A stretch of DNA of 35,433 nt. It comes from an uncultured Bacilli bacterium (lineage in GTDB: Bacteria > Bacillota_I > Bacilli_A > RF39 > UBA660). The stretch lies in the NCBI GenBank assembly GCA_947623705.1, contig CANQHT010000002.1, forward strand, positions 1 through 35,433, written 5' to 3'. This document shows, one piece after another, positions 7,848 through 23,502 of this stretch. Below the pieces are notes generated by a model that had not been told where the DNA came from, ran no database searches, and worked only from the letters and a program-made list of their open reading frames with translations. Positions within the stretch are counted from its first letter, which is position 1. Every line of letters starts with the position of its first letter. Made by a program: the position numbers and the translations under genes.

Positions 7848-8356
7848 TTATTTATTGAGGTATAATAACTTCTAATTTTAAAATTGGCAACTTTACTCAT
7901 TAAACTATAAGGGAATGTTTTTAAGAGTTGATTAGATTGTAAAGCATTTTGATTAAATAAATTTTTAGATGCTACTAATACTTCATCTACTTCTCTTAAG
8001 TGTTGATAATTTTTCATAAATTCTTTATCACTATTAATTTCGGTAAAATCTTTCATAAGTTCATTTATAAGTCTTACAGCTTCTTCTAACTTTAAATCTT
8101 TTTCAATATTAGTAGTTATCATATCTTTTAAATTAGTATAATCTTTTAAATAATCTTTTTTACCAGTAACTTTTTTTATTTGACTATTCATGGCAATTAT
8201 TAAATCAAATTTTTTATCCAGATTTTCTTCAATTAAACTTTCGGCCTTTTCCATCTTTTCTTTATAACCTTTTAATTTACTATAACTGGCAACATAGATT
8301 AAGGCTAAAATAGCAATTACTGCAAAAACAATGGAAATTACTAAATAGATATTCAT
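7820..8356 (-). CDS. lemA: LemA family membrane protein
   Basis: N-terminal TM helix, then Y..L......KAES.I...L.KKFDLI, and the C-terminal FNQNALQSNQLLKTFPYSLMSKVANFK pattern (YN..v..yN..i..FP). 178 aa. Confidence 0.75.
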   Translation of the reverse strand: MNIYLVISIVFAVIAILALIYVASYSKLKGYKEKMEKAESLIEENLDKKFDLIIAMNSQIKKVTGKKDYLKDYTNLKDMITTNIEKDLKLEEAVRLINELMKDFTEINSDKEFMKNYQHLREVDEVLVASKNLFNQNALQSNQLLKTFPYSLMSKVANFKIRSYYTSINNKTDEGETF

Positions 8357-9978
8357 TTTTTATCCCTTTTCTTTCTAATCTTTTTACTTAAATCTTTACC
8401 AAATATTTTATTAATGGCGTCTTTATTAATCGTGTAATAGATAACTAAGAAGACTATACCAATAATCGCCATTATAAATATTAATCTAAATCTACCATCT
8501 ACATTATTTATTATACCACAAGTTATTAAAGATAAAACAATCATAATTACATAACTAAATAATAATCTAGGCAATTTTTTCAATGTTTCTTTATATTCTA
8601 AATGATATTTATTTTTTAAAGCCACAAATGGAATAAATAAAGAAATTATATAACCAATTAAGGTAGCAGTTATCGTACCATAATAAGGATATAGACCTAA
8701 ATCATTAAAGATAAACATTAAAGGTAAATCTAATATTAAATTTAAACTTAAACCCAATAAAACGGATTTATAAATTAGTTTAGTTTCATTAAGACCTTGT
8801 AAACCATTACAAATCATAATATATAAAGCATCAACTGCCGCGATAATAATGGAATATCTTAAAATAGTTGTTCCTAAAGTACTTGGACTAATAAAGATTG
8901 CATAGACTTGGTTAGCAAATATACTCATAAATATCGCTAAAGGAAGAGCAATATATAAAAATATTTGAATGGTTTTATTAAATTTATCATTAATATCTTG
9001 ATAATCTTTTTGAGCTTTACTTTTAGCAAGAGTAGGCACTAAACTTAAGGCAATTCCGGTTGCAATACTAGTAATAATCGTATTCATTTTACTTATGTAG
9101 GTTGTAAACATGCCACTGATGGTCGTAATTTCAACTGGACTATATTTTAAATAATTTAAACCTCTTATTAATAAAGATAAATCGGTAATCGAATATAAGG
9201 AATTAGCCACATTAATAACAATAAAAGGAATGGCATATAATATGACTTTTTTAATAATTTTTTTCTTTTCATTTATTTTTAATTCTTTAGGTTTAGTCTT
9301 ATCCTTTTTAAGTTCCTTCATTTTAATAAATAGATAGATATACGCTACTAAAGCCCCAAGAAAAGCTCCGAAAACAGCAATACCTATGGTAAACTTTAAA
9401 CTTAAATGTAACATTTTATAACAAATGAAACTACCCATTAATATAACTATAACTCTCACTATTTGTTCAATTACTTGGCTAAAAGATGATGGAAACATAA
9501 AGCCACTACCTTGAAAGTATCCTCTTACAACAGACATCAAAGGCACTACTAAAATAGCAAAAGATACACATCGAATAACAAAAGCAATTTCCGGAATAGT
9601 ACTTAAAACGGAATCTTTAGTACCAACTAATATTTTAGCAATAGTGGGAGCAAATAAAAAACAAATTAGAAAAGATATAAGAGAGAAAATAAAAATAAAT
9701 TTTTGACTAGCTTTTAACATGTAATTTTTTTCATTTACTTTACCTAAAGAATTATATTCACTAGTAAGCTTACTAATAGCAAGAGGAATACCCGCAGTTG
9801 ATATAACTAAGAAAAAATTATAAATTTGATAAGCATAACCATATAATGCTCCACCTTCATAACCAACAATACTATGAAAAGGAGTTATATAAATAATTCC
9901 AATAAATTTTGAAATAAAGATTGCTAAAGTGGCAATTATTGCACCTTCAATAAAACCATTCTTTTTCATCTTAATCAC
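8353..9978 (-). CDS. MOP-superfamily flippase (MurJ/SpoVB-type polysaccharide/lipid II flippase)
   Basis: 541 aa and highly hydrophobic with about 14 TM segments. The N-terminus FIEGAIIATLAIFISKFIGIIY..P is typical of the SpoVB/MurJ group. 4-bp overlap with lemA. Confidence 0.8.
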   Translation of the reverse strand: MIKMKKNGFIEGAIIATLAIFISKFIGIIYITPFHSIVGYEGGALYGYAYQIYNFFLVISTAGIPLAISKLTSEYNSLGKVNEKNYMLKASQKFIFIFSLISFLICFLFAPTIAKILVGTKDSVLSTIPEIAFVIRCVSFAILVVPLMSVVRGYFQGSGFMFPSSFSQVIEQIVRVIVILMGSFICYKMLHLSLKFTIGIAVFGAFLGALVAYIYLFIKMKELKKDKTKPKELKINEKKKIIKKVILYAIPFIVINVANSLYSITDLSLLIRGLNYLKYSPVEITTISGMFTTYISKMNTIITSIATGIALSLVPTLAKSKAQKDYQDINDKFNKTIQIFLYIALPLAIFMSIFANQVYAIFISPSTLGTTILRYSIIIAAVDALYIMICNGLQGLNETKLIYKSVLLGLSLNLILDLPLMFIFNDLGLYPYYGTITATLIGYIISLFIPFVALKNKYHLEYKETLKKLPRLLFSYVIMIVLSLITCGIINNVDGRFRLIFIMAIIGIVFLVIYYTINKDAINKIFGKDLSKKIRKKRDKK

Positions 9979-10140: not shown

Positions 10141-10617
10141 ATGATGATAATGCTTCCAAATGACAATAATAATCAAAATAAAATAGTATTTGAAATTGGT
10201 AAAGGATTAAGAATATTTATGTTAGTGGTTTCTATAATATTTTTTATTCCTGCCATTGTATTTTTGATTCAAGCAATAAAAAATGCTAATATGGGTGAAC
10301 TTATTGGGGTATTAATTTTTGTAATATTGGCGTTAATTAGTTTATACTTATATTTATTATTTAATAAAAAAGTTGTATATGAAAATAATACTTTAACGAT
10401 TTATAATATTTTTGGTAAACATACTTCTATTAATGTTAAAGATATAAAACAAGCAATTGAAATGCCATTAGATGGAATGAAATTAATTTATGATGATAAT
10501 AAATATATTAAAATTGATGTACAAATGAATAACTATGCAAAGATTAAAGATATTTTAGAAAAAAACAATATATCTTATGAAGATAAAAATGGCAATAACG
10601 CTCCGAAGGGATGGTAA
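10141..10617 (+). CDS. Small membrane protein, unknown function
   Basis: Two predicted TM helices (LRIFMLVVSIIFFIPAIVFLIQAI; LIGVLIFVILALISLYLYLLF) and an upstream GGTAGGG RBS-like sequence. Confidence 0.55.
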   Translation: MMIMLPNDNNNQNKIVFEIGKGLRIFMLVVSIIFFIPAIVFLIQAIKNANMGELIGVLIFVILALISLYLYLLFNKKVVYENNTLTIYNIFGKHTSINVKDIKQAIEMPLDGMKLIYDDNKYIKIDVQMNNYAKIKDILEKNNISYEDKNGNNAPKGW

Positions 10618-11033
10618 TAAATATGGGAAAATTTTGTTTATATTATAAGAAAAATGGTAATTCATTACTTGGTGATGTCTTAAAGGTAAAAATAGATGAT
10701 AATGAAACTTTTGAAGTTAATAAAAACGAAGTATATGTGGTAGAACTTACTAATGGAACTCATAATTTTAAAATGTATTATGAAGGCTGGTCTAGTGAAG
10801 AATTAGTTGGTTATATAGATGAAAATATAGAAATAAATGGAGATACATATTATATTTATAAAGATCCTAAAACCATATATGGAAAAGGTAGTTTAATAAG
10901 AAAAAATTCTAAAAGTCCTGAAGAATTTACTAAAAATGTTAAAAAATCTAATATAACTTCAGCAGTTTTAGGATTGTTATTTATTATATTATTGTTTATT
11001 ATTGTCATTGTATTAGAAATAGTCACTGAGTGA
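10611..11033 (+). CDS. Hypothetical protein with C-terminal TM anchor
   Basis: Overlaps the previous ORF by 7 nt. C-terminal AVLGLLFIILLFIIVIVLEIV. Confidence 0.5.
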   Translation: MVINMGKFCLYYKKNGNSLLGDVLKVKIDDNETFEVNKNEVYVVELTNGTHNFKMYYEGWSSEELVGYIDENIEINGDTYYIYKDPKTIYGKGSLIRKNSKSPEEFTKNVKKSNITSAVLGLLFIILLFIIVIVLEIVTE

Positions 11034-11084: not shown

Positions 11085-11258
11085 ATGAAAAGAAATTTTT
11101 ATGTTATTTTTACTTTTTTTATATGTACTTTAATTTTATATTCTTTAAAAGTGGAAGCCGTACTACCTTTGACCGGTAAAACTATTGTCATTGATGCGGG
11201 ACACGGGCGATACTCTTATACCAAGACAAATAAAATAAGTATGTTAGAGCTGAAATAA
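11085..11258 (+). pseudogene. cwlD: 5' segment of a CwlD-type N-acetylmuramoyl-L-alanine amidase gene, interrupted after codon 41
   Basis: MKRNFYVIFTFFICTLILYSLKVEAVLPLTGKTIVIDAGHG is a TM/signal anchor plus the start of Amidase_3 (D-x-GHG). It is followed by 16 unrelated codons (RYSYTKTNKISMLELK) and a stop. Not in the ORF track because it is only 57 aa. Confidence 0.85.
11185..11225. repeat. attL (cwlD half-site + core ACACGG + element arm GCGATACTCTTATACCAA)
   Basis: The element arm at 11208..11225 is the imperfect inverted repeat of the right-end arm at 20368..20387. Confidence 0.7.
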
Positions 11259-11336
11259 TGCAATAAAACGGTATTGAATATCGTTTTTTTTTAAAATCGT
11301 GTTATAATTAAATAGAAAGATATAGAGGTGAATTTT

Positions 11337-11768
11337 ATGACATATGAAGAACAAAGAAAAGAAGCAATTTCTAGAATACAAGAATTAACAAAAAAATTTA
11401 ATCTTAATAATAATATGCTAGAATTTTTTCAAAACGGAAAAATTTACGGACTTGATTATGCAGATGTGGAAGATAAAAAGAAAGAAGATAGAAGTAAATT
11501 AATTTCTAATATTATAGAAAAGTGTCAAAAAGAATATAATTCAGTAGTTTACTATTTTAATATTGTTGATGTTAACTTTGAAGGGTATGATTTAGATATA
11601 TTAAGTATATTTTATGTTGGACAATATAAAGAAGATTGGGAAAATGAAAGACTATCAGAAAATAATGAGATGTATATACTAACTTATGACCTTAATACTC
11701 CAGAATATCCCGAGTTAGGTTTTGTAACAGTAACTTCCAAAGATGGAAACCTAATAAGAGCTTCATAA
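11337..11768 (+). CDS. Element cargo protein, unknown function (paralog of 13767..14195)
   Basis: ATG at 11337 lies 6 nt after the AGAGGTG RBS (the track starts at GTG 11328). It has its own extended -10 promoter (tgttataat) and is preceded by a hairpin plus T-run at about 11264..11292. Shares QRKEAI..L.K.FNLN..LE.F..GKI with the second copy. Confidence 0.65.
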   Translation: MTYEEQRKEAISRIQELTKKFNLNNNMLEFFQNGKIYGLDYADVEDKKKEDRSKLISNIIEKCQKEYNSVVYYFNIVDVNFEGYDLDILSIFYVGQYKEDWENERLSENNEMYILTYDLNTPEYPELGFVTVTSKDGNLIRAS

Positions 11769-11791
11769 GAATTTAAAACGACTAGTAAATA

Positions 11792-11998
11792 CTAATCGTT
11801 TTCTTTTTCGCCTCTAGTTTCTTTATTTTTAAGATTATCTAGGGCATACCTTATACATTGATTTATTAATTCATTTCTACTTACATCAATTTGTCCTGCA
11901 AGTTTGTCAATTTCTTCTAATGTTTCAATATCAATTCTTATTGTTGCAACTATTTTTTCGCTAGTTGTTGGTTTTTTATAAGGTTCAAATTCTTTCAT
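11792..11998 (-). CDS. Ribbon-helix-helix (CopG/MetJ-type) DNA-binding protein
   Basis: 68 aa. IVATIRIDIETLEEIDKLAGQIDVSRNELINQCIRYALDNL fits the beta-strand/helix/helix RHH pattern. RBS AGAAAGGGCGG. Confidence 0.65.
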   Translation of the reverse strand: MKEFEPYKKPTTSEKIVATIRIDIETLEEIDKLAGQIDVSRNELINQCIRYALDNLKNKETRGEKEND

Positions 11999-12112
11999 TT
12001 TAACCGCCCTTTCTACATATATATTGTAATAACTTTTAGAATTTATTCATATACTTAAATCTAGAAGCGACTATAGATTATAAAATATAATCATAAATAT
12101 AATCAAAAGTGT

Positions 12113-12141
12113 ATTGACAGCGAAAAATAACTATGTTAGAA
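12113..12141 (+). promoter_or_regulatory. Near-consensus sigma-A promoter
   Basis: TTGACA (12113..12118), a 17-bp spacer ending in TGt, then TAGAAT (12136..12141). Confidence 0.6.
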
Positions 12142-12147
12142 TTATAT

Positions 12148-12262
12148 TGTCGGTAATGAAGTGCTAAAATCCGACATTGTAGTAATTGTTGGTTGTAGTA
12201 TGTAGTTAAGCCAACAATAGCAGTATCGGAACACGGCAGTATCATGTGTTCCTTTTTTATTT
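12148..12262 (+). ncRNA. Candidate structured small RNA or cis-acting leader/attenuator (about 115 nt)
   Basis: It lies downstream of the promoter. Hairpins are tgtcgg/ccgaca (12147..12175) and ttgttgg/ccaacaa (12186..12217). An intrinsic terminator ggaacac-11 nt-gtgttcc plus TTTTTTATTT (12228..12262) ends 55 nt before the lipoprotein ATG. No riboswitch class recognised. Confidence 0.4.
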
Positions 12263-12316
12263 GATACAAGCATTGTTAAAATGTTTGAACATAAATTTAA
12301 AATGAGAGGTGTTAAA

Positions 12317-13333
12317 ATGAAAAAATTAAAATGTTTAAGTTTAGTTATGTTAGTAGCTTTAATGTTAACTGGTTGTGGTGGAAAAGATAGTGTTAGTAAT
12401 CTTAATAGTCCCGAAAAAGTTGTTGCTCGTTATTGTGATATACTTGTTAATGGAAATTATGGTGATATATTAGATATTGCTGATTTACCAGAAAGCGAAT
12501 TTATAACAAAAGATATAATTAACGGAGCAAAAGCCAATTTTCGTGAAAGATTTTTAGAAGAAAATGAAGAGGCAATTTCTTGTACTTATACTATGGCAAC
12601 TGAAGATGATGAAAAAGTATCTTATAAACTTGTAATAAACGAAAGTAGTACTAAAACGTTAGATATTAAGAAAAGCAATAATAAAGCTATAATAGATGAT
12701 ATTTATGTAGAAGCTAATATTTATAGTCCTTTAGGTTCAAGTGTAACTGTGGACAATATAGATATTTCAAAATATAAGATTTCCGAAACTTCTAATATAT
12801 ATGATAATTCAGCTGTAGAACATTATACTATAACAGTATTAAGTGATTACAATTATAGTGTTAAATCATCACACCCATTACTTTCAACTTCTCAAGAAGC
12901 AAATTTTACTGATGATGAAGAAGGACTATTAGTATTCTTTTCATACTATGTTGGCTACAAAAACTCTCCAGAGAAAAATGGATATGGAGAAAATATGACT
13001 GAAATTACAATTAAAGAAAAATATTATAATGAAATTGAAAAATTCGTTGATGAAACTATTGTACCAATTATTAAAGATGTTTCTGATAATAAAGATATTA
13101 GTAAGTATAATCAATATTTTGTAGATGGTGATGCTACTATTTTATCTAACAAAATAAACCCAAAATATTTAAGTGATAGTTTCCCAATTGAAACGATTAG
13201 TTTATATGGCGAAAATAAAGTAGAAATATTAATTCGTTATGCACACTCATCTAGTAACGGTGGTAGCGACTTCCATTGCAATTTAATGATTATTAGAAAT
13301 GGTGATAATTGGAAAATTGAAAGTGTGAGATAG
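12317..13333 (+). CDS. Lipoprotein, NTF2-like/DUF4878-like ends, unknown function
   Basis: MKKLKCLSLVMLVALMLTGCGG is a canonical lipobox. ATG 12317 follows RBS GAGAGGTG (the track start 12281 is an upstream in-frame extension). N-terminal SPEKVVARYCDILVNGNYGD and C-terminal LMIIRNGDNWKIESV look NTF2-like. Confidence 0.75.
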   Translation: MKKLKCLSLVMLVALMLTGCGGKDSVSNLNSPEKVVARYCDILVNGNYGDILDIADLPESEFITKDIINGAKANFRERFLEENEEAISCTYTMATEDDEKVSYKLVINESSTKTLDIKKSNNKAIIDDIYVEANIYSPLGSSVTVDNIDISKYKISETSNIYDNSAVEHYTITVLSDYNYSVKSSHPLLSTSQEANFTDDEEGLLVFFSYYVGYKNSPEKNGYGENMTEITIKEKYYNEIEKFVDETIVPIIKDVSDNKDISKYNQYFVDGDATILSNKINPKYLSDSFPIETISLYGENKVEILIRYAHSSSNGGSDFHCNLMIIRNGDNWKIESVR

Positions 13334-13589
13334 TACTATTAATAAATTATTATATGAGAACAATAGTAAAAGAAGTTAAACAAAACGAAGATATTTATAT
13401 TTTACATAGTATTATTGAATTATGTATTTGCATTATATTGATAAAGTACCAAAAAGCATTGTTAAACGATTATATAATTTATATAAAGAAACACTTAAAG
13501 AAATAGAAAAAGATTACGAAGATTTAGACATTAAAGATTATGAAATTATAGAAAGAATTATATTTGAAGATAAAAAACATTAAAAAAAG

Positions 13590-13633
13590 CAGAATGTTGG
13601 ATCATAAATAAATGTTCCAATGTTCTGTTTTTT
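13590..13633. terminator. Strong bidirectional rho-independent terminator
   Basis: A 12-bp stem cagaatgttgga / tccaatgttctg (two G-U pairs), with an A7 run upstream and a T6 run downstream. Confidence 0.65.
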
Positions 13634-13654
13634 GAATTTACCTAAAATAATTTA

Positions 13655-13690
13655 AAAAATACCATTTTAAATCTCTACAAATACCATATT
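13655..13690 (+). promoter_or_regulatory. Two direct copies of the AAATACCAT operator-like motif, 21 bp apart
   Basis: aaaaATACCATttta and acaaATACCATattt lie upstream of the 13767 gene. The same motif occurs three times at 14856..14912. Confidence 0.45.
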
Positions 13691-13766
13691 TAGTTATGAT
13701 ATCATTTACTCATCAACGAAATACTAGTTAATTGTTGAAAAAATAAATTTGAAAGGATATATTATT

Positions 13767-14195
13767 ATGAACGAAAAAAAACTTAAAGAAGCTCAAAGAA
13801 AAGAAGCAATTAAAAAATTAAAGAAATTAGAAAAATTATTCAATTTAAACCCAAAAGTGTTAGAAGATTTTGAATTAGGAAAAATTAATACTAGTTTATT
13901 TGACAAAATTGTTGAAACCCAAAACATAAAAAATCTTGATAAAATTATTACAGATTTTGAAAAAGAAAATAATGCATTAGTTTATCATTGTATAGGTGGT
14001 TACTTTAATTTAGTGTTTTTATTATTTGTCAACGAAGAATATCCTTCGCCATTGTATGATTTAGGTGATAAAAAATTTGCAATATTTTCTTATCGTACTA
14101 GTCTTACAAAAAATTGCACTTATTATAATATTATGGGTTTAGCAACTTTGGATAGTAATAAAGGAGTATTGACAGTAAAAAATTGGTTTTGCTGA
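13767..14195 (+). CDS. Element cargo protein, unknown function (paralog of 11337..11768)
   Basis: ATG 13767 follows RBS GAAAGGA (the track starts at TTG 13749). The N-terminal helix LKEAQRKEAIKKLKKLEKLFNLNPKVLEDFELGKI matches the first copy. Confidence 0.65.
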   Translation: MNEKKLKEAQRKEAIKKLKKLEKLFNLNPKVLEDFELGKINTSLFDKIVETQNIKNLDKIITDFEKENNALVYHCIGGYFNLVFLLFVNEEYPSPLYDLGDKKFAIFSYRTSLTKNCTYYNIMGLATLDSNKGVLTVKNWFC

Positions 14196-14243
14196 AAAAT
14201 AAAAAATTATAGATTTAAAGTGGTCTATAATTTTTTTGAATAA

Positions 14244-14840
14244 TTAATTATTATCAATTCTTGTACAATTATAATTTGCAATTTTTACTGATGGAGATAC
14301 AATGATTTTATAATACTTCTCTCTTAAATTCTCAACTTCAAAATCAAATTCATCTTGTTGGATATCTCCATTATTCTTTTTTTGTTCTAATAATTTTTTG
14401 TTATAAAAGTATTCTAATAAATATTCATTTGTAGAAAAATTTAATATTAACATAGGGTCTTCCTTATCATCACATAACGGAAATTCAATATCAAAAATTT
14501 GTTCAAAAGCAATTTCGGCTGTAATTTCTTTTTCATTAATATAATCACTAATACCAAATAAATAATCTAAACTAACATTAAATTTTTTAGAAATTTTTAA
14601 TGCTTTATCTAATGTTAAGCCACTATTTCCTTTTTCAATAGAATATAATGTTTCAACACTAAAACCATTAATATCTTTTACAAAATCTTCAGCTTTCAGT
14701 CCTAAATTTTTTTGTAAAGCTTTTACACGATTTCTAGCAATTTCTTTTACTTCGGTATTTTCACTAAAATTGTCTGCTTTTTTTTCTTTGTCTTCATCAA
14801 ATATTTTTTGTATCTTTTCATCTCTTTTAATTTCTTTCAT
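14244..14840 (-). CDS. XRE-family HTH transcriptional regulator (probable element repressor)
   Basis: HTH_3 pattern VKALQKNLGLKAEDFVKDINGFSVETLYSIEKGNSGLTLDKALKISKKFNVSLDYLFG. It is divergent from the transfer operon. RBS AGAAAGGAAA. Confidence 0.8.
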   Translation of the reverse strand: MKEIKRDEKIQKIFDEDKEKKADNFSENTEVKEIARNRVKALQKNLGLKAEDFVKDINGFSVETLYSIEKGNSGLTLDKALKISKKFNVSLDYLFGISDYINEKEITAEIAFEQIFDIEFPLCDDKEDPMLILNFSTNEYLLEYFYNKKLLEQKKNNGDIQQDEFDFEVENLREKYYKIIVSPSVKIANYNCTRIDNN

Positions 14841-14855
14841 AATTTTTCCTTTCTC

Positions 14856-14927
14856 ATAAATACCAAATTTTTTTAAATAAATACCATTTCAACATAATTT
14901 ATTTACCATATTATTTTGTAATATAAT
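14856..14927 (+). promoter_or_regulatory. Divergent control region: three operator-like repeats plus a -10 for the transfer operon
   Basis: ataaATACCAAattt, ataaATACCATttca and ttatTTACCATatta (20 and 23 bp apart), then TATAAT at 14922..14927. The last repeat overlaps the -35 position. A downstream 8-bp inverted repeat tcaagaga/tctcttga (14970..15016) lies in the leader. Confidence 0.5.
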
Positions 14928-15049
14928 GTTCTTACTCAAGCGAGATATAGGCCTATAAAAAGCTTGATTTCAAGAGATATTATATCATATATAAATTTGT
15001 GACACAATTCTCTTGATTTTAAAAAATTTAACGAATAGGAGGAAAAACT

Positions 15050-15370
15050 ATGATTTTCAAAATTAATGATATTGTGGTAGATTTTAAAGCCACCTTTGGA
15101 AATAATTTTGGTCTTGTGAACGTAGAAGAAAAGCGAAAATATGTAGATGGTGCTAGAACTGATGAAACATATTTTGTAAATACGATTGTTTGTTTTGATA
15201 AGCGTTTACGTACTTTTCAAATTAAGACAGATAAACAATTTGTATCTGCTCCACAAGAGGGCGACATTGTTGGTGTTGCTTTAGTTGGTGCTGTTGCTAA
15301 ACCTTATGTAATGAATAATCAGCTAGGGTTTACGGTAACAGTAGATGATATTAAAGTTATTAAAGAATAG
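15050..15370 (+). CDS. DUF961/HelP-like protein (Tn916 Orf22/23, ICEBs1 HelP family helicase processivity factor)
   Basis: 106 aa. The TFGN..F near the N-terminus and the V.LV....Y......GFT....DDI pattern near the C-terminus match my recollection of Tn916 Orf23-type proteins. It is the first gene before the FtsK-like gene, as in Tn916/ICEBs1. Strong AGGAGG RBS. Confidence 0.6.
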   Translation: MIFKINDIVVDFKATFGNNFGLVNVEEKRKYVDGARTDETYFVNTIVCFDKRLRTFQIKTDKQFVSAPQEGDIVGVALVGAVAKPYVMNNQLGFTVTVDDIKVIKE

Positions 15371-15410
15371 GAGAGCTTAATTGCTCTCGTCCCTACGGGG
15401 ACAGAAAGGA
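15371..15410 (+). repeat. Intercistronic double hairpin + RBS, copy 1
   Basis: gagagc-ttaatt-gctctc, then gtccc-tacg-gggac, then AGAAAGGA. The same architecture recurs at 15770..15809. Confidence 0.5.
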
Positions 15411-15416
15411 CTAATT

Positions 15417-15761
15417 ATGGTATATATTAAAAAAGATATGAATATAAAGAATAAATTAGATGAGATTTTTAATAAAGCTGAAAATTTTAGAAAAGATGGT
15501 GAGATAGCTAAAGCTTTATCAAGCTATAATGAATTCTTAAATGTCGGAGAAATGGTAAATGATTGCTCTAGACATCACGAGGCATATTGGGGTATGTGTT
15601 TAACTTGGTATCTTCACTCAAGAAATTGTAATAAATGGCATACCTTAATTGAATATTTATATGATATGACTATGGTTTATGCACCTATTGAAAAGAAAGA
15701 AGAATATAGCAAATTTTATAATGATAATATGCTTCATTTTAAAGAAGAAGTTACTAGCTAA
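15417..15761 (+). CDS. Hypothetical Cys/His/Trp-rich protein of the transfer operon
   Basis: ATG 15417 follows RBS AGAAAGGA (the track start TTG 15381 would run through the hairpins). Contains DCSRHHEAYWGMCLTWYLHSRNCNKWH. Confidence 0.55.
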   Translation: MVYIKKDMNIKNKLDEIFNKAENFRKDGEIAKALSSYNEFLNVGEMVNDCSRHHEAYWGMCLTWYLHSRNCNKWHTLIEYLYDMTMVYAPIEKKEEYSKFYNDNMLHFKEEVTS

Positions 15762-15769
15762 AATTTTAT

Positions 15770-15809
15770 GAGAGATTAAATTCTCTCTTCCCTAAATTGG
15801 GAGAAAGGA
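15770..15809 (+). repeat. Intercistronic double hairpin + RBS, copy 2
   Basis: gagaga-ttaaat-tctctc, then tccc-taaatt-ggga, then GAGAAAGGA, 8 nt before ATG 15817. Confidence 0.5.
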
Positions 15810-15816
15810 AAAATTT

Positions 15817-17052
15817 ATGAAAAATAATATTTTAAAAAAAATTAATCATATTAATTTAAAAATAATATTTATATTGTTATATATTGTATTAGCACAATTA
15901 ATATTTCATAGAGCTGAATATATTTTAATTAACTTTATGGAATTGAAACAAAATTCAATATTATATTATGTATATAAATATGGTCTTGGTATAATTTTAA
16001 CTTTAATTTTAATAGCACTAATAATAACTTTAAAAAGATTTAAGATTAACAAAAAGAAAGAAACAAAAGGTATGGAAGATATTAAATTAAAAAATGGAAA
16101 TAATGAATTTATGAGATGTGTTGATATTATTAAAGGAACAGAAGAAAACCAAAATATTTATGTACTAGAAACGAAAAATATTCCATTATCTATAATTAAA
16201 GAAAATAAAGACAAATTAGAAATGATATACGATATTAAAATAGATTATATAGAATATAAAAATGGTACTACTAAATATGTAAATGTTTATGGTACACCAA
16301 TGAAATATATTAAACCTAAATTATTTCAAGTGAATACGGAAGACCAATTTATGGCTAATTTTCAGTCGCTCCTAGTAGTTGGGACATCTGGGTCGGGTAA
16401 GACATATTACACTTATCAGCAGTTAGTTAAGCTGATATTAAATGTATCCAAAAGTAAAAATAAAAATAAAAATGAAAATGAAGCAAATTTTGAAAAGGTA
16501 TTAGTCTTTGTTAATGACAGAAAAAACGAAGATTTTATACAATTTAAAGATTGTCCTAATTATTATGGAATTAATGCAATAGATGGTATTAGAAAGGTAC
16601 ACGAGATATTTATGGAAAGGTTAAATAGTGGAGAAAGTAGCGAAGATAAACCTACTATTATATGTCTAATAGAGGAATATGCTGTTTTGTTAAATTCTCT
16701 AGATAAAAAAGAGGCAGAAGAAATAAAAGATAAAGTTGCAGATTTATTATTTGCTGGCCGTAGTAAAAAGGTCATACCTATTGTATCATTACAAAGGTGT
16801 GATTCTTCTTATTTTGTTAGGGGTAGCCGTGAACAGTTTAAGCGAATAGCTATATTGGGAAACAATTCTCCTATTTTATTAGATATGATATTAGGAAAAG
16901 ATTTGCAAAGTCAAATTACTGAAAATAACCCACAAGGTTATGGTTATCTTTACGAAGATGGTAACCCTAAATTGACCCGTTTTAAGGTTGGTAAAATTAC
17001 AGAAGAAGAAAAAGAAATGTTTGATAATGTTATAAGGAGCAAAATGTGTTAA
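15817..17052 (+). CDS. FtsK/SpoIIIE-TcpA-like DNA translocase (conjugative coupling protein, ConQ/Orf21-like)
   Basis: Two N-terminal TM helices, Walker A LLVVGTSGSGKTY and Walker B PTIICLIEEYAVLL. 411 aa. Confidence 0.8.
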   Translation: MKNNILKKINHINLKIIFILLYIVLAQLIFHRAEYILINFMELKQNSILYYVYKYGLGIILTLILIALIITLKRFKINKKKETKGMEDIKLKNGNNEFMRCVDIIKGTEENQNIYVLETKNIPLSIIKENKDKLEMIYDIKIDYIEYKNGTTKYVNVYGTPMKYIKPKLFQVNTEDQFMANFQSLLVVGTSGSGKTYYTYQQLVKLILNVSKSKNKNKNENEANFEKVLVFVNDRKNEDFIQFKDCPNYYGINAIDGIRKVHEIFMERLNSGESSEDKPTIICLIEEYAVLLNSLDKKEAEEIKDKVADLLFAGRSKKVIPIVSLQRCDSSYFVRGSREQFKRIAILGNNSPILLDMILGKDLQSQITENNPQGYGYLYEDGNPKLTRFKVGKITEEEKEMFDNVIRSKMC

Positions 17053-17135
17053 CGTGGCCGTACGGCGAAACGAAGTGGAAGCCAGTACGATCCACGTAGC
17101 CACTCGTAGAGTGGCGATATTGACTTGATATCTTA
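17052..17135 (+). promoter_or_regulatory. Candidate oriT (origin of transfer / double-strand origin)
   Basis: A GC-rich island in AT-rich DNA. It has a long imperfect hairpin acgtgg..cgtac..ggc / gcc..gtacg..ccacgt (17052..17097), a perfect hairpin gccactc-gta-gagtggc (17099..17115) and gatat-N7-atatc. It sits between the coupling-protein and Rep genes, where oriT sits in Tn916 and ICEBs1. Confidence 0.5.
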
Positions 17136-17162
17136 TAACACAAAAACATATTATTTAATTTT

Positions 17163-18053
17163 ATGAAGATAGAGAAATTAAAAGATAACCCTAAAATAGG
17201 TTTAAATGCTGAAAGTCAAGTAACGGTTAAAGAAACTGGAAATCAAACAGAGGTTAAGTATGCAATTAATAAAACTGGTGGAAATATTGTTAAATTAAAT
17301 AGCAAAGAGTATATGGTAGTAACTAGTGGAGAAATTAAGTGTTTTTCAAATTCTGCCACTTCTAGAAAAGACAATAAATCAAGTATTAAAAGAACTATGA
17401 AAAATTTACGTGATATTATTAATACTAATATAACAGATTATAAGAAAGTTCTTTTTATTACATTAACTTATAAAGAAAATATGACTAATGCAGAACAATT
17501 ATATCAAGATGTAAGAAAATTCCATCAAAAATTTAAGAGATATTTAAAAACAAATAATCTACCTTATGAATTTGAATATATTTCAGCTACAGAGTGTCAG
17601 TCAAGAGGTGCATATCATCAGCATAATCTTTATATATTTAACACAAAAGCTCCATTTATAAAAAATGATATATTAACTAAAATATGGGGTCACGGTTTTA
17701 CAAAAACTAAATCTCTTAAAAACGTTGACAATATAGGTATGTATTTAACGGCATACTTAACAGATTTAGATTTAAGCGAAGATTTAGAAAAAGAAACTGG
17801 AAAGAAAGTTAATAAAGCTATTATTAAAGGTGCAAGATTAAAACTGTATCCTAAAGGTTTTAGAATTTATCGCACAAGTAAAAATATTAAACGCCCTAAC
17901 GTATATACAGCTACCGAAGATGAAATAATGCAAAAGCTAGGTAATTCCGTTTTAACTTATGAAAAAACTTTACGTATATCTAATTATGATAATAAAACAA
18001 TAAATATCATCAATTATAGAAATTATAATAAACTTGTTAAAAACAAAAAATAA
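17163..18053 (+). CDS. HUH-superfamily rolling-circle Rep-like protein (probable relaxase/replicase)
   Basis: Three RCR motifs in order: VLFITLTYKEN (motif 1), GAYHQHNLYIF (H-u-H), and GMYLTAYLTD (Y-x-x-x-Y catalytic tyrosines). Confidence 0.75.
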   Translation: MKIEKLKDNPKIGLNAESQVTVKETGNQTEVKYAINKTGGNIVKLNSKEYMVVTSGEIKCFSNSATSRKDNKSSIKRTMKNLRDIINTNITDYKKVLFITLTYKENMTNAEQLYQDVRKFHQKFKRYLKTNNLPYEFEYISATECQSRGAYHQHNLYIFNTKAPFIKNDILTKIWGHGFTKTKSLKNVDNIGMYLTAYLTDLDLSEDLEKETGKKVNKAIIKGARLKLYPKGFRIYRTSKNIKRPNVYTATEDEIMQKLGNSVLTYEKTLRISNYDNKTINIINYRNYNKLVKNKK

Positions 18054-18118
18054 TAACTTGTTAAACTACTAGGGAAAGGTAAGGTGTAACCTCAAATTTT
18101 TAAGGAGAGTGATACACT

Positions 18119-18268
18119 TTGAAAAAGTTAACACAAGTATATACAAATAAATTAAGTAAAAAAGATATATACATAAAGAAATTTAACAAAACGGCAATTA
18201 TTGAAGAAGATTTTCATATTCACAAATACCATAACATACTTTTTATTAAGGGGTTAAAATATGACTAA
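18119..18268 (+). CDS. Small ORF (49 aa), possible accessory/RDF candidate
   Basis: TTG start 9 nt after TAAGGAGAG. Too short for the ORF track. Contains another AAATACCAT motif (18224..18232). Confidence 0.3.
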   Translation: MKKLTQVYTNKLSKKDIYIKKFNKTAIIEEDFHIHKYHNILFIKGLKYD

Positions 18269-18401
18269 ATATGATATAGTGGTATCTAGTGAATTTGTAA
18301 CCGATACAAAAACAGAAGAAGATTTTATAACACTTTTTAATCAAAAATTAGCTACTTTATTTTTGATAATAGAGCAAAAGGATAATTTGGGACTAAAATA
18401 G
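18261..18401 (+). CDS. Small acidic ORF (46 aa), possible accessory/RDF candidate
   Basis: ATG overlaps the previous stop (tATGacTAA) and is preceded by AAGGGG 7 nt upstream. MTKYDIVVSSEFVTDTKTEEDFITLFNQKLATLFLIIEQKDNLGLK. Confidence 0.3.
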   Translation: MTKYDIVVSSEFVTDTKTEEDFITLFNQKLATLFLIIEQKDNLGLK

Positions 18402-18470
18402 TATGAGTATTTATGATATAATTTACTTGTATTATTTCAGTTCAACATATAATTAAGAAAGGAAAATTAT

Positions 18471-20366
18471 ATGTTTGAAGAATTAAAAGGTGGTGAAACT
18501 TCTTCTTATAATAATACACAAGATTATAATATTAAAAATGTTTCGGTAGAAGATTATACAAGTTCGGTAGAGTTCAAAGCAATAAAAGAATTGCTAGTAG
18601 AGGATAACCTAATATATGTTACAGAATTTATAAGAAAGCTACTTGATATTAAAAAGCCAAATGATACAACTTGTTTTACGTGTGGAAATGGTAATAAAAT
18701 AGTATATAAAAATGGTTATGGTAAAAGAGCGATTTTATATCTTCGTTTATCAGTTGAAGATATGCAAAAGAAAGATACAACACCTAGTAAAAGTATTCTT
18801 AATCAATTATTATTACTTTTACAGTATTGTAAAGAACACGAAATAGAAGTAGTTGGAATATTTTACGAAGAGGGTATTAGTGGTGCTGATGAGAATAGAC
18901 CAGAGTGGAATAAATCGCTAGTCTTCTGTGAAAAAGGACATTGTGATATATACATTACAAAAACTCAAGCCCGTTTTGCAAGAGATGTTGAGATGATAGA
19001 AAGATATTTACACAAAAGATTTATTGAGTGGAATATAAGGTTTTTAAGCATTGTAGACCATAGCGATACATCACAAAAGGGTAATAAATTACAAAGGCAA
19101 ATAACGGCTATTGTAGATGAAAATAAATTGTCCGAGCAGTCAATAAACACAAAAGCAACTTTGAGAGGTAAAAATCAAGCTGGACAATGGACAGGGTCAT
19201 TTGCTTGTTATGGTTATATAGAAGACCCAAACGATATGTATCATTTAGTACCAGACCCACCAGCTGCTAAAATAGTACAAAAGATATATGAACTATATGC
19301 AAATGGTACGGGTTACTTTAAAATATGTAAGTATCTTAACGAACATAATATACCAACACCAAGTAAATATAAGAAATTGCAAGGGTCAAAGTTTAAATGT
19401 TGCAAAGCTCCAAATGGAAGTGAATTTTGGAATATTGATACCGTACGAAAGATACTAAAAGATGAAACTTATGATGGGTTACTTATTCAAAATAGAACAG
19501 AAACAATATCTTATAATATTAAGAAAGCAAGAAAACTACCAAGAAGCGAGCAAACAATAATTGCTTGTGCTCACGAAAGAATTGTTGACCCAGTTATTTC
19601 AAGAATTGTAAGACAAAAATTTGAGGCAAGAACAAATGCAACTTGTGATAATATAGATACTATTCATACTAGACCAAAACCCGACAAAAACGGCGAAGTA
19701 CATATTTTTAGTCAAAAAGTATATTGTGCAGAGTGTGGAAAGATTTTTCAAAAAACTACTGCTAAAAGTGGACCTCGTAAAAACCCTACTAAAAAAGATT
19801 ATTTGCATTGTAAAACGAATAAAAGAACTTGTCAAACTGGTTGTACTAATAATTCATCAATTCGTATTGAAGTATTGGAACAAGTTGTTTTAGAAGAAAT
19901 AAACAAACAAATTGACAAATATTATAATGAAGAAAAATTTAATAAAAGTTATTATGAGAAAAAAGTTAACACCAATTATGAAAATGAAATTAAGGCATTA
20001 CAAGAAGAAAAGATAATGTTAGATAAAAAAATTAAAGATAATACAAATCGCTTTACCTTACTTTATGAAGATAGAGCAAACGAAGTTATAACTACACAAG
20101 AATTTATACTATTAAAATCAAAATATAATGATGAGATAGAACGTTTTAATAATCGGTTAAGAGAAATAGAAGATTTAATTATTTCTTTTAATAATAAGAA
20201 ACAACAACAATTAAATGAACAAGAGATATTTAAAAAATATAAACATATTGATAAGTTAGATAGATTAGTTGTTGAAACGTTTATATCAAAAATCATTATG
20301 GGAAAAGTTGATAAAGAAACTAAAAAGAGAACTATAAATATCGTTTGGAATATTTGTAGTTCCTAA
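18471..20366 (+). CDS. Large serine recombinase (integrase) with ~80-aa N-terminal extension
   Basis: Resolvase catalytic domain (RAILYLRLSVEDMQ, Ser at about residue 94; ITKTQARFARD), a recombinase domain, a zinc ribbon (CAECGK..HCKTNKRTCQTGC) and a C-terminal coiled coil. RBS AAGAAAGGAAA and an extended -10 (tgaTATAAT, 18414..18422). Confidence 0.9.
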   Translation: MFEELKGGETSSYNNTQDYNIKNVSVEDYTSSVEFKAIKELLVEDNLIYVTEFIRKLLDIKKPNDTTCFTCGNGNKIVYKNGYGKRAILYLRLSVEDMQKKDTTPSKSILNQLLLLLQYCKEHEIEVVGIFYEEGISGADENRPEWNKSLVFCEKGHCDIYITKTQARFARDVEMIERYLHKRFIEWNIRFLSIVDHSDTSQKGNKLQRQITAIVDENKLSEQSINTKATLRGKNQAGQWTGSFACYGYIEDPNDMYHLVPDPPAAKIVQKIYELYANGTGYFKICKYLNEHNIPTPSKYKKLQGSKFKCCKAPNGSEFWNIDTVRKILKDETYDGLLIQNRTETISYNIKKARKLPRSEQTIIACAHERIVDPVISRIVRQKFEARTNATCDNIDTIHTRPKPDKNGEVHIFSQKVYCAECGKIFQKTTAKSGPRKNPTKKDYLHCKTNKRTCQTGCTNNSSIRIEVLEQVVLEEINKQIDKYYNEEKFNKSYYEKKVNTNYENEIKALQEEKIMLDKKIKDNTNRFTLLYEDRANEVITTQEFILLKSKYNDEIERFNNRLREIEDLIISFNNKKQQQLNEQEIFKKYKHIDKLDRLVVETFISKIIMGKVDKETKKRTINIVWNICSS

Positions 20367-20367
20367 T

Positions 20368-20415
20368 TTGGTATAACAGTATCCAGCACACGGTTCGAAA
20401 GATGTGGGTACTAGT
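20368..20415. repeat. attR (element arm TTGGTATAACAGTATCCAGC + core ACACGG + cwlD half-site)
   Basis: The arm starts 2 nt after the recombinase stop codon and is an inverted repeat of the attL arm. Confidence 0.7.
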
Positions 20416-20916
20416 TATGGTAGTATTTATGAAAAAGATATTAATTTAAATATTGCCTTATTTTTACAAAATGAATTAGGGGCCTTGGGGGCAACTGTCT
20501 ATATGACAAGAGATGGTGATTATGATTTATCCACTCCTAAAGCAAATTTTCGCAAGAAAAGTGATTTTGACAACCGCATTAAATTAATTAATGAAAGTGA
20601 TGCTGACCTTTATTTAAGTATTCATATTAATTATTTATCTAATGCTGCTTATTCGGGTCCGCAAGTGTTTTATAACAAAGATAATGAGAACTTAGCTAAA
20701 GTCATGCAAGAAGTGATGAATAAAAATTTAAAAGGAGACCGGGAAGTTAAAAAAATTCCTAGTACAACCTATATGTATAATAAGTTAAAAGTACCAGGAG
20801 TTTTAATTGAATGTGGTTTTTTATCTAATGGGGAAGAAAGAAAAAAATTAGTCACTGAAGATTATCAAAAAAAGATTGCTAAAACTATTGCTGAAGGAGT
20901 TCTGGAATATTTTTAA
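20377..20916 (+). pseudogene. cwlD: 3' segment of the CwlD-type amidase gene
   Basis: The frame opens at 20377 (QYPAHGSKDVGTSYGSIYEKDINLNIALFLQ..). The remainder of Amidase_3 is present (YMTRDGD, DLYLSIHIN, VLIECGFLSN). There is no SD before the tracked GTG 20404. Confidence 0.85.
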
Positions 20917-21781: not shown

Positions 21782-21798
21782 TTTACCTTCCTTTAATC

Positions 21799-22404
21799 TT
21801 ATAATTTATCTATAGGATAAATATTTTTTCCGAAATAGCTATTTTTTTCTTTTTTATTAATTGGTATATTTAAAGTGTTTTCAATATTAAAAGCAATTTT
21901 TTCAGGATCACTATCAAGTTCACTTAAATTAATATAGATAAGCTTTTGATCATTTCTAATGCGGAATATTTTTAATAAATTTCGATGTCTTTGATTAATT
22001 TCTTGATTAGTAACTATTCCTAAGTATTTATTTCTAATAATGTAATCATCTCGATGAATAGTAGGATATATTTTAATTATATTTTCTTTATTTATGGTAA
22101 TTTTACCATTCATAAAACTATCATAAATTATTGAATCATTAGTAACTGTCAATATTTCTTTTTTATTATAAAGAAGAATTCTTATATTTAAATATATTAC
22201 TATTAAAAGACCAAGACCACCAGTAAATAGAACATAAGCCGGTATATCAATAAGTAATAATAGCGCAATAGTTTTGACTTTTTCTGTATTAGTTGAATCT
22301 AAATACATCAGAATTGTTAATATAAGTAAAATAATAAAGATAAGTTGAACACCAATTACTTTAAAAACTCTTTTAGTATTTAAATTGTATTTCATATAAA
22401 TCAC
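21799..22404 (-). CDS. Membrane protein, unknown function
   Basis: Two N-terminal TM helices followed by a soluble ~120-aa domain. No family recognised. Confidence 0.5.
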   Translation of the reverse strand: MIYMKYNLNTKRVFKVIGVQLIFIILLILTILMYLDSTNTEKVKTIALLLLIDIPAYVLFTGGLGLLIVIYLNIRILLYNKKEILTVTNDSIIYDSFMNGKITINKENIIKIYPTIHRDDYIIRNKYLGIVTNQEINQRHRNLLKIFRIRNDQKLIYINLSELDSDPEKIAFNIENTLNIPINKKEKNSYFGKNIYPIDKL

Positions 22405-22572
22405 TCTTTTCTTAGATATTTTTATCTTAACTATATTATAAAATAATAATTATTTAGTTGCAATATATTAAATATTTCACTTAATTATCACAAAAATTAT
22501 ATTAAAAATACAACAAAAATAGATATATTTAAATCACTTCTTATGGTATAATTGAATTTAGGTGAATAAGAT

Positions 22573-23502
22573 ATGGGGTCTAAGACATTTAAAAATTTAG
22601 ATGAGCAAATTGAAATATTACAAGGAAAAGGCCTAGTTATTGATGATATTGATTATGCTAAAGAAGTCTTACTTAGAGAGAACTATTTCTTTTTAAGTGG
22701 TTATAGGCATTTATTTTTAAGAAAAGATGGGAGCAGGAAATTTTTATCCGGAACCAATTTTAGAGAAATCTATGGTTTATTTAATTTTGACCGGCAGTTA
22801 AGAAATATTCTTTTCAAAAATATTTTAATTGTGGAAAACAACTTAAAAAGTATTCTTTCCTATGTAATGAGTAAAAATCATGGTTTTAAAGAACAGAACT
22901 ATTTAAATGCGGATAATTTTGTTAAAGACAGTAGTAAAACTAGACAAATCAATGATTTACTTAGAAAGATGAAACGCCAGATAAGTGTTAATGGTAAACA
23001 GCACGCAGCGACTAGCCACTATATTAACAATTATGGTTATATTCCGTTATGGATTGTAGTTAAAGTTTTATCTTTTGGCATTGTTGGGGAGTTATATTCA
23101 ATTTTACAAAGAGAAGATCAGGAGGAAATTGCGAATATTTATGGCATTAGAGTTCATGAATTAGTGGATTATTTACCAATACTAGCTAATTATCGTAATC
23201 TATGTGCTCATGAAGATATTTGCTATAATAATCATACTCATAAGAAAATTGAACACACAAAATATCACGACATTTTAAATATTCCAATGGATGAAGAAGG
23301 CGAGTATATATATGGTGTAAGTGATTTATTTGCTATTATTATAATACTTAAACAAATCTTAAAAGAAGAAGATTTTATTATGATGATGAATGAAATAAGT
23401 TATGAATTAGATGTTTTAGATGGTAAATTAGTAGCCATTGAAATAAAAGATGTTTTAAATGAAATGGGATTCCCATTAAATTATAAGGAGATAGTGAGAT
23501 AA
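22573..23502 (+). CDS. Abi_2 family (AbiD/AbiF-like) HEPN-domain abortive-infection protein
   Basis: N-terminal LDEQIEILQGKGLVIDDIDYAKEVLLRENYFFLSGY and the HEPN R-x4-H motif in LANYRNLCAHED. Extended -10 promoter tggtataat upstream. Confidence 0.8.
   Translation: MGSKTFKNLDEQIEILQGKGLVIDDIDYAKEVLLRENYFFLSGYRHLFLRKDGSRKFLSGTNFREIYGLFNFDRQLRNILFKNILIVENNLKSILSYVMSKNHGFKEQNYLNADNFVKDSSKTRQINDLLRKMKRQISVNGKQHAATSHYINNYGYIPLWIVVKVLSFGIVGELYSILQREDQEEIANIYGIRVHELVDYLPILANYRNLCAHEDICYNNHTHKKIEHTKYHDILNIPMDEEGEYIYGVSDLFAIIIILKQILKEEDFIMMMNEISYELDVLDGKLVAIEIKDVLNEMGFPLNYKEIVR

Follow-up and report, generated by a model that had tools for sequence, protein, structure and literature searches.

A mobile element at the zinc-ligand codons of a CwlD-type amidase gene in an uncultured Bacilli bacterium, with relatives in other Amidase_3 genes

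The stretch of DNA described here, referred to as the window, comprises 35,433 nt (contig CANQHT010000002.1, assembly GCA_947623705.1), and its host likely belongs to the uncultured low-G+C Bacilli that carry the public labels Mollicutes or Tenericutes. In the window, the gene of a CwlD-type, membrane-anchored amidase of the Amidase_3 family is split by about 9.2 kb of DNA (11207-20387) with a large serine recombinase (LSR) gene at one end. The best explanation, to which a probability of roughly 0.85 is assigned, is that this DNA is an integrative mobile element whose recombinase clade uses the coding sequence of the catalytic GHG motif as its chromosomal attachment site, attB. Comparison across the clade showed this attB to be the sequence coding for (I/V)-I-D-x-G-H-G-G, and showed that landing is possible in either orientation, depending on the subclade. 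Since this coding DNA is conserved in Amidase_3 genes, the element can enter cwlD and its paralogs in many hosts. The survey covered 16 aligned recombinase relatives, 80 loci from species-representative genomes, loci obtained by exact protein look-up, and 80 viral contigs.

The 5' fragment of the amidase gene (11085-11206, plus strand) encodes the anchor and ..GKTIVIDAGH(G), and was matched by tblastn to residues 1-41 of the joined protein. It opens a 57-codon open reading frame (ORF; 11085-11258) that starts with the membrane anchor, continues past GHG into foreign DNA and ends with a stop at 11258. The 3' fragment (20394-20916, plus strand), identified by tblastn and by alignment to the CwlD structure 7rag, contains EKD, SIHIN and IECGFLSN, and its own promoter, start codon and membrane anchor are all missing. 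Both frames were found as an earlier note made from the letters of this DNA had described them, and the recombinase ORF (18471-20366) is present too. The hexamer ACACGG occurs in the window at 11201-11206, 12231-12236 and 20388-20393. Of the two outer copies, which the earlier note had placed at the break points, the right one was positioned correctly, whereas the left one had been put at 11202-11207 and is corrected here, together with the distance between them, which is 9,187 bp and not 9,186 bp. The hexamer alone is not significant, with three copies seen against 1.95 expected and at least three found in 30 of 100 shuffles. Joining 11085-11206 to 20394-20916 yields 645 nt, that is, 214 codons and a stop, in keeping with the in-frame rejoining to a 214-aa protein that had been claimed. 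The joined frame reads ..IDAGHGSKDVGTSYGSIYEKD.. across the junction (longer stretch, ..GKTIVIDAGHGSKDVGTSYGSIYEKD..), and the attB sequence of the rejoined gene is GATGCGGGACACGGTTCGAAAGATG.

Homologs of the joined protein numbered 6,785 at E <= 1e-10, and the best 120 of them were mostly intact 214-aa proteins. The top homolog (P0001) shows 98% identity with 100% length coverage, and the contig that carries it (L001) represents the empty site: its intact gene aligns with the joined ORF without gaps, with 34 synonymous and 5 nonsynonymous codon differences. The collinear, gap-free alignment with intact orthologs and the match to the CwlD profile over its full length are what had been anticipated for a precisely split gene. 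Downstream synteny is also preserved between the window and L001, with a gene for a 298-aa protein on the minus strand followed by Abi_2 and HtrA, and the same order was found in L171/L172, from a relative whose CwlD is 71% identical. In addition, an independent ENA assembly (L084) contains the identical left junction inside 7.7 kb at 100% identity. The split is genuine, as evidenced by the gap-free empty site, the 214-aa orthologs, the palindromic ends and the independently assembled junction. As judged from L001 and the orthologs, a protein-coding gene is interrupted and its precise removal gives one ORF, as in intervening elements; the proposal that precise excision would restore the gene in frame thus agrees with both the joined ORF and the empty site.

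The element is bounded by the core ACACGG at attL (11201-11206, plus strand), in which the presumed crossover dinucleotide CA forms the first two bases of the GHG histidine codon, and by ACACGG at attR (20388-20393, plus strand). Inside these cores lie the left-end arm GCGATACTCTTATACCAA (11207-11224, plus strand) and its inverted repeat, the right-end arm TTGGTATAACAGTATCCAGC (20368-20387, plus strand). The left end was found unchanged behind six other amidase 5' fragments, and the right end is identical in L002 and L003, where other amidase genes adjoin. Joining the right end to the left end reconstructs attP as TTGGTATAACAGTATCCAGCA-CA-CGGGCGATACTCTTATACCAA, with the junction sequence GGTATAACAGTATCCAGCACACGGGCGATACTCTTATACC. 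This attP is an imperfect palindrome centered on the CA of the histidine codon, matching at 17 of 29 positions. Random joins did as well in 31 of 20,000 cases (0.15%), and 49 of 35,353 window positions did so. The core common to the element ends and the targets is 3-6 bp long, and targets with a CAT codon share only ACA..GG. The reconstructed attP has the look of a serine-integrase attP, combining, as LSR attachment sites do, an imperfect inverted repeat at a central dinucleotide with a short core common to attB.

The joined protein was matched by TIGR02883 (spore_cwlD) over profile positions 1-189 of 189 (E 8.7e-57, 192.3 bits), more than 40 orders of magnitude ahead of the next family (4.5e-15). 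The best solved structure was Clostridioides difficile CwlD (7rag; 2.2e-32, aligned over residues 25-213), 17 orders of magnitude stronger than Staphylococcus aureus LytH (7tj4; 1.1e-15). The architecture is likewise that of CwlD: a hydrophobic N-terminus and a single Amidase_3 domain with GHG (H40), EKD (E54), SIHIN and IECGF, in agreement with the ~210-240 aa, the zinc ligands H/E/H and the catalytic E expected of a CwlD. The score of 192.3 bits lies below the curated NCBI cut-off of 221.55 for TIGR02883, so that the equivalog level is not reached; relatives scored 171-205 bits, and P0044, a protein named CwlD by NCBI, scored 185 bits, likewise below the cut-off. The CwlD-type identity proposed in the earlier note therefore stands as to profile length and structure and falls short as to score. 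A flippase gene of the MOP family (8353-9978, minus strand) lies 1.1 kb upstream of cwlD; it matches SpoVB (TIGR02900) at 2.8e-47 against 3e-10 for MurJ, far under the SpoVB cut-off, an indecisive hint of cortex genes. The break parts the first zinc ligand (the histidine of GHG) and the anchor from the remainder of the Amidase_3 domain, and the integrated state would therefore be a null allele.

What decides the choice of target? At least six further Amidase_3 genes contain near-identical copies of the element, in every case at the GHG codons, and on contigs from other samples element DNA of 99.3-100% identity adjoins different genes, again at this codon. The left element end stands behind ..EDHKYEYDIVIDPGH (L085; short form, ..DIVIDPGH), MSLKVIIDPGH (L087), MALKGVVIDPGH (L088), ..DPGH (L089), MDERTTKKVVIDPGH (L090) and ..TFPIPAHG (L086). 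The right end stands before HGGEDPGAVANGLKEKDYTL.. (L002) and HGGVDSGAVGNGIIEKD (L003), in short form HGGEDPGAVANG.. and HGGVDSGAVGNG.., respectively. Where relatives allowed a target other than cwlD to be rebuilt, the protein lacked a signal peptide and combined an Amidase_3 domain with LysM repeats behind it, of which four stretches scored in the one such target scanned. The idea of an element dedicated to cwlD is thus not borne out. Because the same element occurs in other Amidase_3 genes, the recognized site is the DNA coding for (I/V)IDxGHGG and not cwlD as such, and the choice of target is explained by DNA sequence and not by sporulation function.

In the wider survey, 51 loci had a recombinase at least 35% identical to that of the window. 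cwlD-like genes were the target at 29 of them (27 in the orientation of the window and two inverted), other or partial Amidase_3 genes at 16, yabG at two and an AA_kinase gene at two (one element in two samples), with two loci left unresolved; none of the 104 loci with a recombinase below 33% identity showed such a junction. A split cwlD was found in at least 27 species-representative genomes, and its fragments are intact ORFs. Of the ten cwlD sequences scanned, eight were bare 3' fragments and the others were the rebuilt gene of L010 and the intact P0044. Every one aligns to TIGR02883 as far as position 189, and the bare fragments all start at profile position 9, the same break point. A related recombinase gene also adjoins a cwlD broken at the same codon in Marasmitruncus massiliensis Marseille-P3646 (L036). 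In one subclade the insertion has the opposite orientation, and the recombinase gene adjoins the 5' fragment. In two uncultured Clostridia (L020, ~11.96-12.4 kb; L050, ~8.84-9.2 kb), recombinases 39-40% identical to that of the window adjoin the 3' half of yabG, broken between TGHD and G, the yabG part covering positions 158-276 of the Peptidase_U57 profile; the yabG element in the literature had been described as unique to one C. botulinum strain. At L173/L174 (5.3-12.6 kb), a recombinase of 69% identity splits an aspartokinase-like AA_kinase gene between ..KKVVAVVSAHG and GKKTNKLIEEE, and its element resembles that of the window in the left end (GYSYNRLN read-through) and in having a homolog of the small 46-aa ORF described below. 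In a rough neighbor-joining tree, the yabG and AA_kinase targets are nested within the amidase-targeting clade. At L039 (9.4-11.7 kb), a cwlD-like 5' fragment, ..RIIILDAGHG, ends ~550 bp before the recombinase start, and the DNA past the recombinase stop (..CCAGCACATGG, then AGGAGTTCAATGG..) does not encode an amidase; a minimal, nested or tandem element could account for this.

The element has spread in recent times. In twelve genomes of Acutalibacteraceae or related bacteria, the recombinases are 94-97% identical to each other, whereas the CwlD 3' fragments are only 41-73% identical, indicating that the element entered many species recently and horizontally, always at this site. Co-divergence of recombinase and CwlD, considered as a sign of old vertical inheritance, was rejected: the correlation (r 0.72) reflects deep clades, and within the Acutalibacteraceae group near-identical recombinases accompany unlike CwlD proteins. 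Where both ends are in hand, the elements measure 5-10.6 kb. Scoring of inverted repeats located the left end in the window (score 17) and in L067 (19) and failed at most Oscillospirales loci, probably since those elements exceed the 10-kb flank. The cargo is unrelated between elements, while recombinase and small ORF are retained: L010 (5.7 kb) has a tyrosyl-tRNA-synthetase-like ORF, as read from its translation, and L067 (8.3 kb) has sugar-metabolism genes with an AraC regulator; the element of L009 also measures 5.7 kb. Both a replication initiator (Rep) gene and an FtsK-like gene are present in L175, as they are in the window.

A further break point was observed in Amidase_3-LysM genes, directly after the second zinc-ligand motif, SNH(I/L)NAGGG(D) (L175, ~11.9 kb; L176, ~3.8 kb; L013, ~2.6 kb, minus strand; L009, ~0.96-1.23 kb, minus strand; L007, ~12.4 kb). 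At this point the intact relatives L006, L015 and L023 continue with ..GDGAE(I/V)IYALRN, and the broken copies L176, L009 and L007 continue into a common foreign end (..HCVT../..RCVT..). Past this end, L176 has an ORF, MNISYTKKGDYLLPDL.., with what we take to be a TnpV-like look. These observations suggest that a second element family targets another catalytic motif of the same Amidase_3 enzyme.

The recombinase of the window (18471-20366, plus strand; 631 aa with an 86-aa N-terminal extension) has the domain set of an LSR, namely Resolvase (5.4e-18), Recombinase (3.8e-18), Zn_ribbon_recom (2.8e-11) and DUF4368 (7.5e-6) in Pfam, and in NCBIfam it weakly matches CcrB. Across the 16 aligned relatives, R92 and S94 do not vary. 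That the gene is split by an element carrying an LSR is thus supported. IMG/VR contains no close relatives, its best match reaching 35% identity. Immediately upstream lies a 46-aa ORF (18261-18401, plus strand), a candidate recombination directionality factor by its conserved place before the recombinase gene. Its homologs (41-59 aa), with the motif ..TNAxxEEDxIxxFNxKLAT.., precede the recombinase gene in 18 fetched loci (L004-L016, L023, L173-L176), at a distance of 70-100 bp in the measured cases, and identical copies are present in L002/L003. In the clades from Bacilli hosts, the recombinase and this ORF are the only constant parts, and the cargo differs. The 46-aa ORF has no match in Pfam.

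Two further genes of the element point to mobility. The first encodes a rolling-circle replication initiator, a Rep of HUH type (17163-18053, plus strand; Pfam REP_ORF2-G2P, PF23343, 4.4e-19; PHROG 2.6e-17), as is found in integrative elements of the Rep plus FtsK type. The second encodes a 411-aa membrane-anchored P-loop ATPase (15817-17052, plus strand; PHROG 2.6e-8), with N-terminal membrane segments and the Walker A motif GTSGSGKT, which is a putative FtsK/SpoIIIE-like translocase or coupling protein. The gene at the corresponding position in L175 has a Pfam FtsK_SpoIIIE match and aligns weakly with the ATPase of the window (E 5e-4). A PHROG scan of ten element proteins returned regulators, Rep and the ATPase only and detected no phage structural genes (capsid, tail, portal, terminase or lysis), which does not fit a prophage.

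The other genes are regulators and proteins of no known family, and the element as a whole has a G+C content of 25.8% against ~27% in the flanks. A ribbon-helix-helix (CopG/Arc-like) repressor is encoded at 11792-11998 (minus strand; Pfam RHH_1, 4.4e-5; PHROG repressor families) and an HTH_3 (XRE/cI-type) regulator at 14244-14840 (minus strand; Pfam 1.8e-6; PHROG transcriptional regulator, 2.9e-11). Each of these opposite-strand repressor genes is preceded by one of two paralogs that are 42% identical, encoding 143 aa (11337-11768, plus strand; no family match) and 148 aa (13749-14195, plus strand), and the element thus seems to carry a duplicated or composite regulatory module. The cargo includes a predicted 350-aa lipoprotein (12281-13333, plus strand), read from its translation by the lipobox ..LTGC and without family match. 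Two small ORFs of 106 aa and 126 aa (15050-15761, plus strand) have no families and also occur in L007 and L015. A hairpin, GGAACAC-N11-GTGTTCC followed by a T run (12225-12260), separates the RHH gene from that of the lipoprotein. The third ACACGG copy (12231) lies inside this terminator-like hairpin; considered as an internal attachment site, it is not palindromic and has another spacing, and it was judged a coincidence. The Logan contigs L087 and L088 both end at window position 12233, and L087 is devoid of window positions 11891-12089; the region around 12233 may be a module boundary in element variants.

Outside the element, the surroundings of cwlD differ in part between the window and related contigs. 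The window has 692 bp (21782-22473), with a 201-aa ORF (21799-22404, minus strand), where L001 has 29 bp, and the DNA upstream of cwlD, with two small ORFs (10141-11033), is unlike both L001 and L171. The abortive-infection-like Abi_2 gene (22573-23502 in the window) was found one or two genes from cwlD in L001, L009, L010, L171 and L172. A Zn_dep_PLPC-like gene on the opposite strand accompanies this conserved gene near cwlD in the lineage.

How would the element move? On the mechanism proposed here, crossover would take place at the CA of the histidine codon in the zinc-binding GHG motif, and integration, as recombination of attP with attB, would produce a null allele: the 5' piece would retain the anchor only, and the 3' piece would be left without start codon, anchor and first zinc ligand. 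Excision would be the recombination of attL with attR by the recombinase and a directionality factor, possibly the product of the 46-aa ORF, and would restore the amidase gene exactly while releasing a circle. Rep and the FtsK-like ATPase could then replicate or transfer this circle. The timing of excision may serve transfer only, or may fall also in the sporulating mother cell.

Several points weigh against this account. An exact 40-mer of the attP junction, with Y at the wobble base, gave no match in IMG/VR, and a 20-mer of the left element end gave one match in the JGI metagenomes (L177), otherwise unlike the window and attributed to chance. The exact rejoined protein of the window is absent from a collection of 15 billion proteins, as is the exact rejoined protein of L010; the intact alleles that share a 90% cluster with the rejoined protein belong to the strain lineage of L001. 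The 411-aa ATPase has no match in Pfam, NCBIfam or PDB, and the single PHROG match and the weak pairwise alignment given above are what suggests an FtsK-like protein. The role of the 46-aa ORF in directionality is proposed from its conserved position only. Finally, most Oscillospirales elements are known from one junction, the left end lying beyond the fetched 10 kb.

An insertion of this kind admits several readings of its biological meaning, none of them better than tentative. The first is a skin-like developmental switch, in which the element is kept in the germ line (the forespore chromosome) and excised only in the mother cell as it differentiates terminally; sporulation sigma factors would exert control through the recombinase or its directionality factor, such that cwlD would be rebuilt in time for the muramic delta-lactam of the cortex. 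The target is CwlD-like. In Bacillus subtilis, cwlD is a mother-cell gene under sigma-E control and is needed for cortex formation (PMC517825), so that a mother-cell copy could suffice here as well. In L010, L009 and L067 the recombinase and the small ORF are the only mobility genes, and in this they resemble domesticated intervening elements. The recombinase clade also includes, nested within it, relatives that split yabG, and a yabG element is known from published work to excise as sporulation begins (PMC10747680). Moreover, M. massiliensis, with its broken cwlD and adjoining recombinase gene, has been described as spore-forming (PMC9584879), and in at least 27 species genomes the split cwlD fragments are intact ORFs.

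Sporulation-timed excision is plausible, but a good deal speaks against it. The same element sits in Amidase_3-LysM and other genes, its targeting following DNA sequence, and its spread is recent and horizontal, so that intact fragments need not reflect long-term selection for rejoining. The Rep and FtsK-like genes of this copy would give excision a purpose in transfer, the host may not sporulate, and an excision junction was not found in IMG/VR, the JGI metagenomes or the protein look-up. A CATA motif upstream of the small ORF weakly resembles a -10 element of sigma-E/K type; in DNA of 27% G+C this hint is ambiguous, and because TATAAT-like readings are equal there, the motif upstream of the 46-aa ORF and of the relatives' cwlD was not taken as evidence. 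That cwlD is a hitherto unrecognized sporulation gene which mobile elements split and rejoin, with the GHG codons as attB and excision in the mother cell, is a reading of rather low probability.

A plain insertional knock-out, with rare excision for the element's own transfer, is also possible at a similar, rather low level. Carriers would then live without CwlD, tolerated for its germination-only role or thanks to a second copy. A sequence-driven choice of target that is promiscuous among amidase paralogs accords with this, as do the recent horizontal spread and the finding that no assembly contains a rejoined allele of this strain, the intact alleles being those of a different strain lineage. 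Spores of cwlD null mutants cannot complete germination, owing to the requirement for muramic delta-lactam, and for a gut anaerobe transmitted by spores such a loss should be costly; nonetheless, split cwlD occurs in at least 27 species-representative genomes. Excision by serine recombinases, moreover, is precise by design, which also counts against a plain knock-out.

It is doubtful, to about the same degree, that the target is no sporulation gene in this host. The bacterium may be asporogenous and the amidase may act in vegetative wall turnover in the manner of S. aureus LytH, in which case a wall enzyme would have received, through the insertion, a loss-of-function or phase-variable allele. 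The score of 192.3 bits, below 221.55, would fit such an enzyme, P0044 (185 bits) also falls below the cut-off, and LytH is a detectable relative (1.1e-15). Neither the window nor locus L171 (20 kb, syntenic) contained sporulation-specific genes. Non-sporulating species occur in the orders RF39, RFN20 and ML615J-28, but the same orders also include predicted sporulators (PMC10868615). Against a vegetative role, CwlD is the best family and the best structure, 17 orders of magnitude ahead of LytH, and the flippase gene 1.1 kb upstream resembles spoVB (TIGR02900, 2.8e-47, below cut-off).

An assembly chimera that wrongly joined the element and the gene halves is very improbable, even though the contig is probably metagenome-assembled and an element in several contexts in related samples can confuse assemblers, because the empty site of L001, the conserved synteny and the independent left junction of L084 (100% identity within 7.7 kb) speak against it, as do the break at the same codon on both sides, the in-frame rejoining to a protein 98% identical to intact orthologs, and the same architecture in dozens of relatives.

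The findings matter beyond this contig. CwlD starts the synthesis of muramic delta-lactam and so decides whether a spore can germinate, and the new target recurs in dozens of uncultured gut species of two classes. The broad host range and the multiple targets follow from an integrase clade that lands on DNA coding for the catalytic motif of a whole enzyme family. Annotation pipelines will miss a split cwlD, and genomes may be wrongly scored as lacking part of the sporulation or germination set. If the developmental switch were real, a mobile element would govern, in many Clostridia and Bacilli of the gut, whether spores obtain muramic delta-lactam and hence can germinate, and incomplete excision could, as a side effect akin to bet-hedging, leave some spores super-dormant or unable to germinate. 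M. massiliensis Marseille-P3646 (CSUR P3646 = CCUG 72353) is a cultured spore-forming type strain in which any programmed excision would be directly accessible.

How does the element compare with known systems? Published split sporulation genes are sigK, spsM, spoVFB, spoVR, gerE and yabG, with Bacillus as the main source beside a few clostridia, and the elements concerned are skin in sigK (recombinase SpoIVCA), SPbeta in spsM (SprA/SprB), vfbin in spoVFB, vrin in spoVR, gin in gerE and yin in yabG. Like the skin/SPbeta/gin/yin class, the element of the window has an LSR gene at one end and interrupts a sporulation-type frame that precise excision would rebuild. As with gin, some of its relatives are islands of minimal cargo, and as with yin, recombinase relatives (L020, L050) split yabG. 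Unlike that class, its target is the zinc-ligand GHG codons of cwlD/Amidase_3 genes, one element enters several paralogous genes, and the copy in the window is neither phage-like nor defective but has Rep and an FtsK-like gene. As had been supposed, cwlD was not found as the target of an element in the literature searched, from which subscription-only papers were outside, so that a prior description is possible; nor did that literature hold anything relevant on amidase genes as integration sites of serine recombinases.

With respect to gene content, the closest likeness is to the actinomycete integrative and conjugative elements (AICEs; pSAM2) and the streptococcal integrative and mobilizable elements (IMEs; Rep-type relaxases and TcpA/FtsK-like coupling proteins), which combine an integrase with a rolling-circle Rep and an FtsK-like translocase. 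The element of the window likewise unites an integrase, a rolling-circle Rep, a membrane-anchored FtsK-like ATPase and repressors within ~9 kb. It differs from AICEs, which typically have a tyrosine integrase, in that its integrase is an LSR; the FtsK-like assignment is weak and the transfer function putative. The recombinase resembles TndX (Tn5397), TnpX (Tn4451) and CcrB of SCCmec, sharing the same domain set including DUF4368 and, weakly, a CcrB match, and resembles them also in using several target sites with a short common core. In contrast to the loose sites of those enzymes, the target here is a defined coding motif of ~20-40 bp common to one enzyme family. In B. subtilis, site-specific recombination units have been described as exchangeable between phage, skin and an integrative and conjugative element (PMC6957869). 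The pair of small ORF and recombinase, as the sole part conserved among elements of unrelated cargo, fits such a portable unit, with the difference that the exchange is here deduced from comparative data. Taken together, cwlD is a new target within a known kind of split-gene system and defines a well-populated new group, to which two features are added: the landing site is the catalytic-motif coding sequence of an enzyme family, and the same element enters several paralogs.

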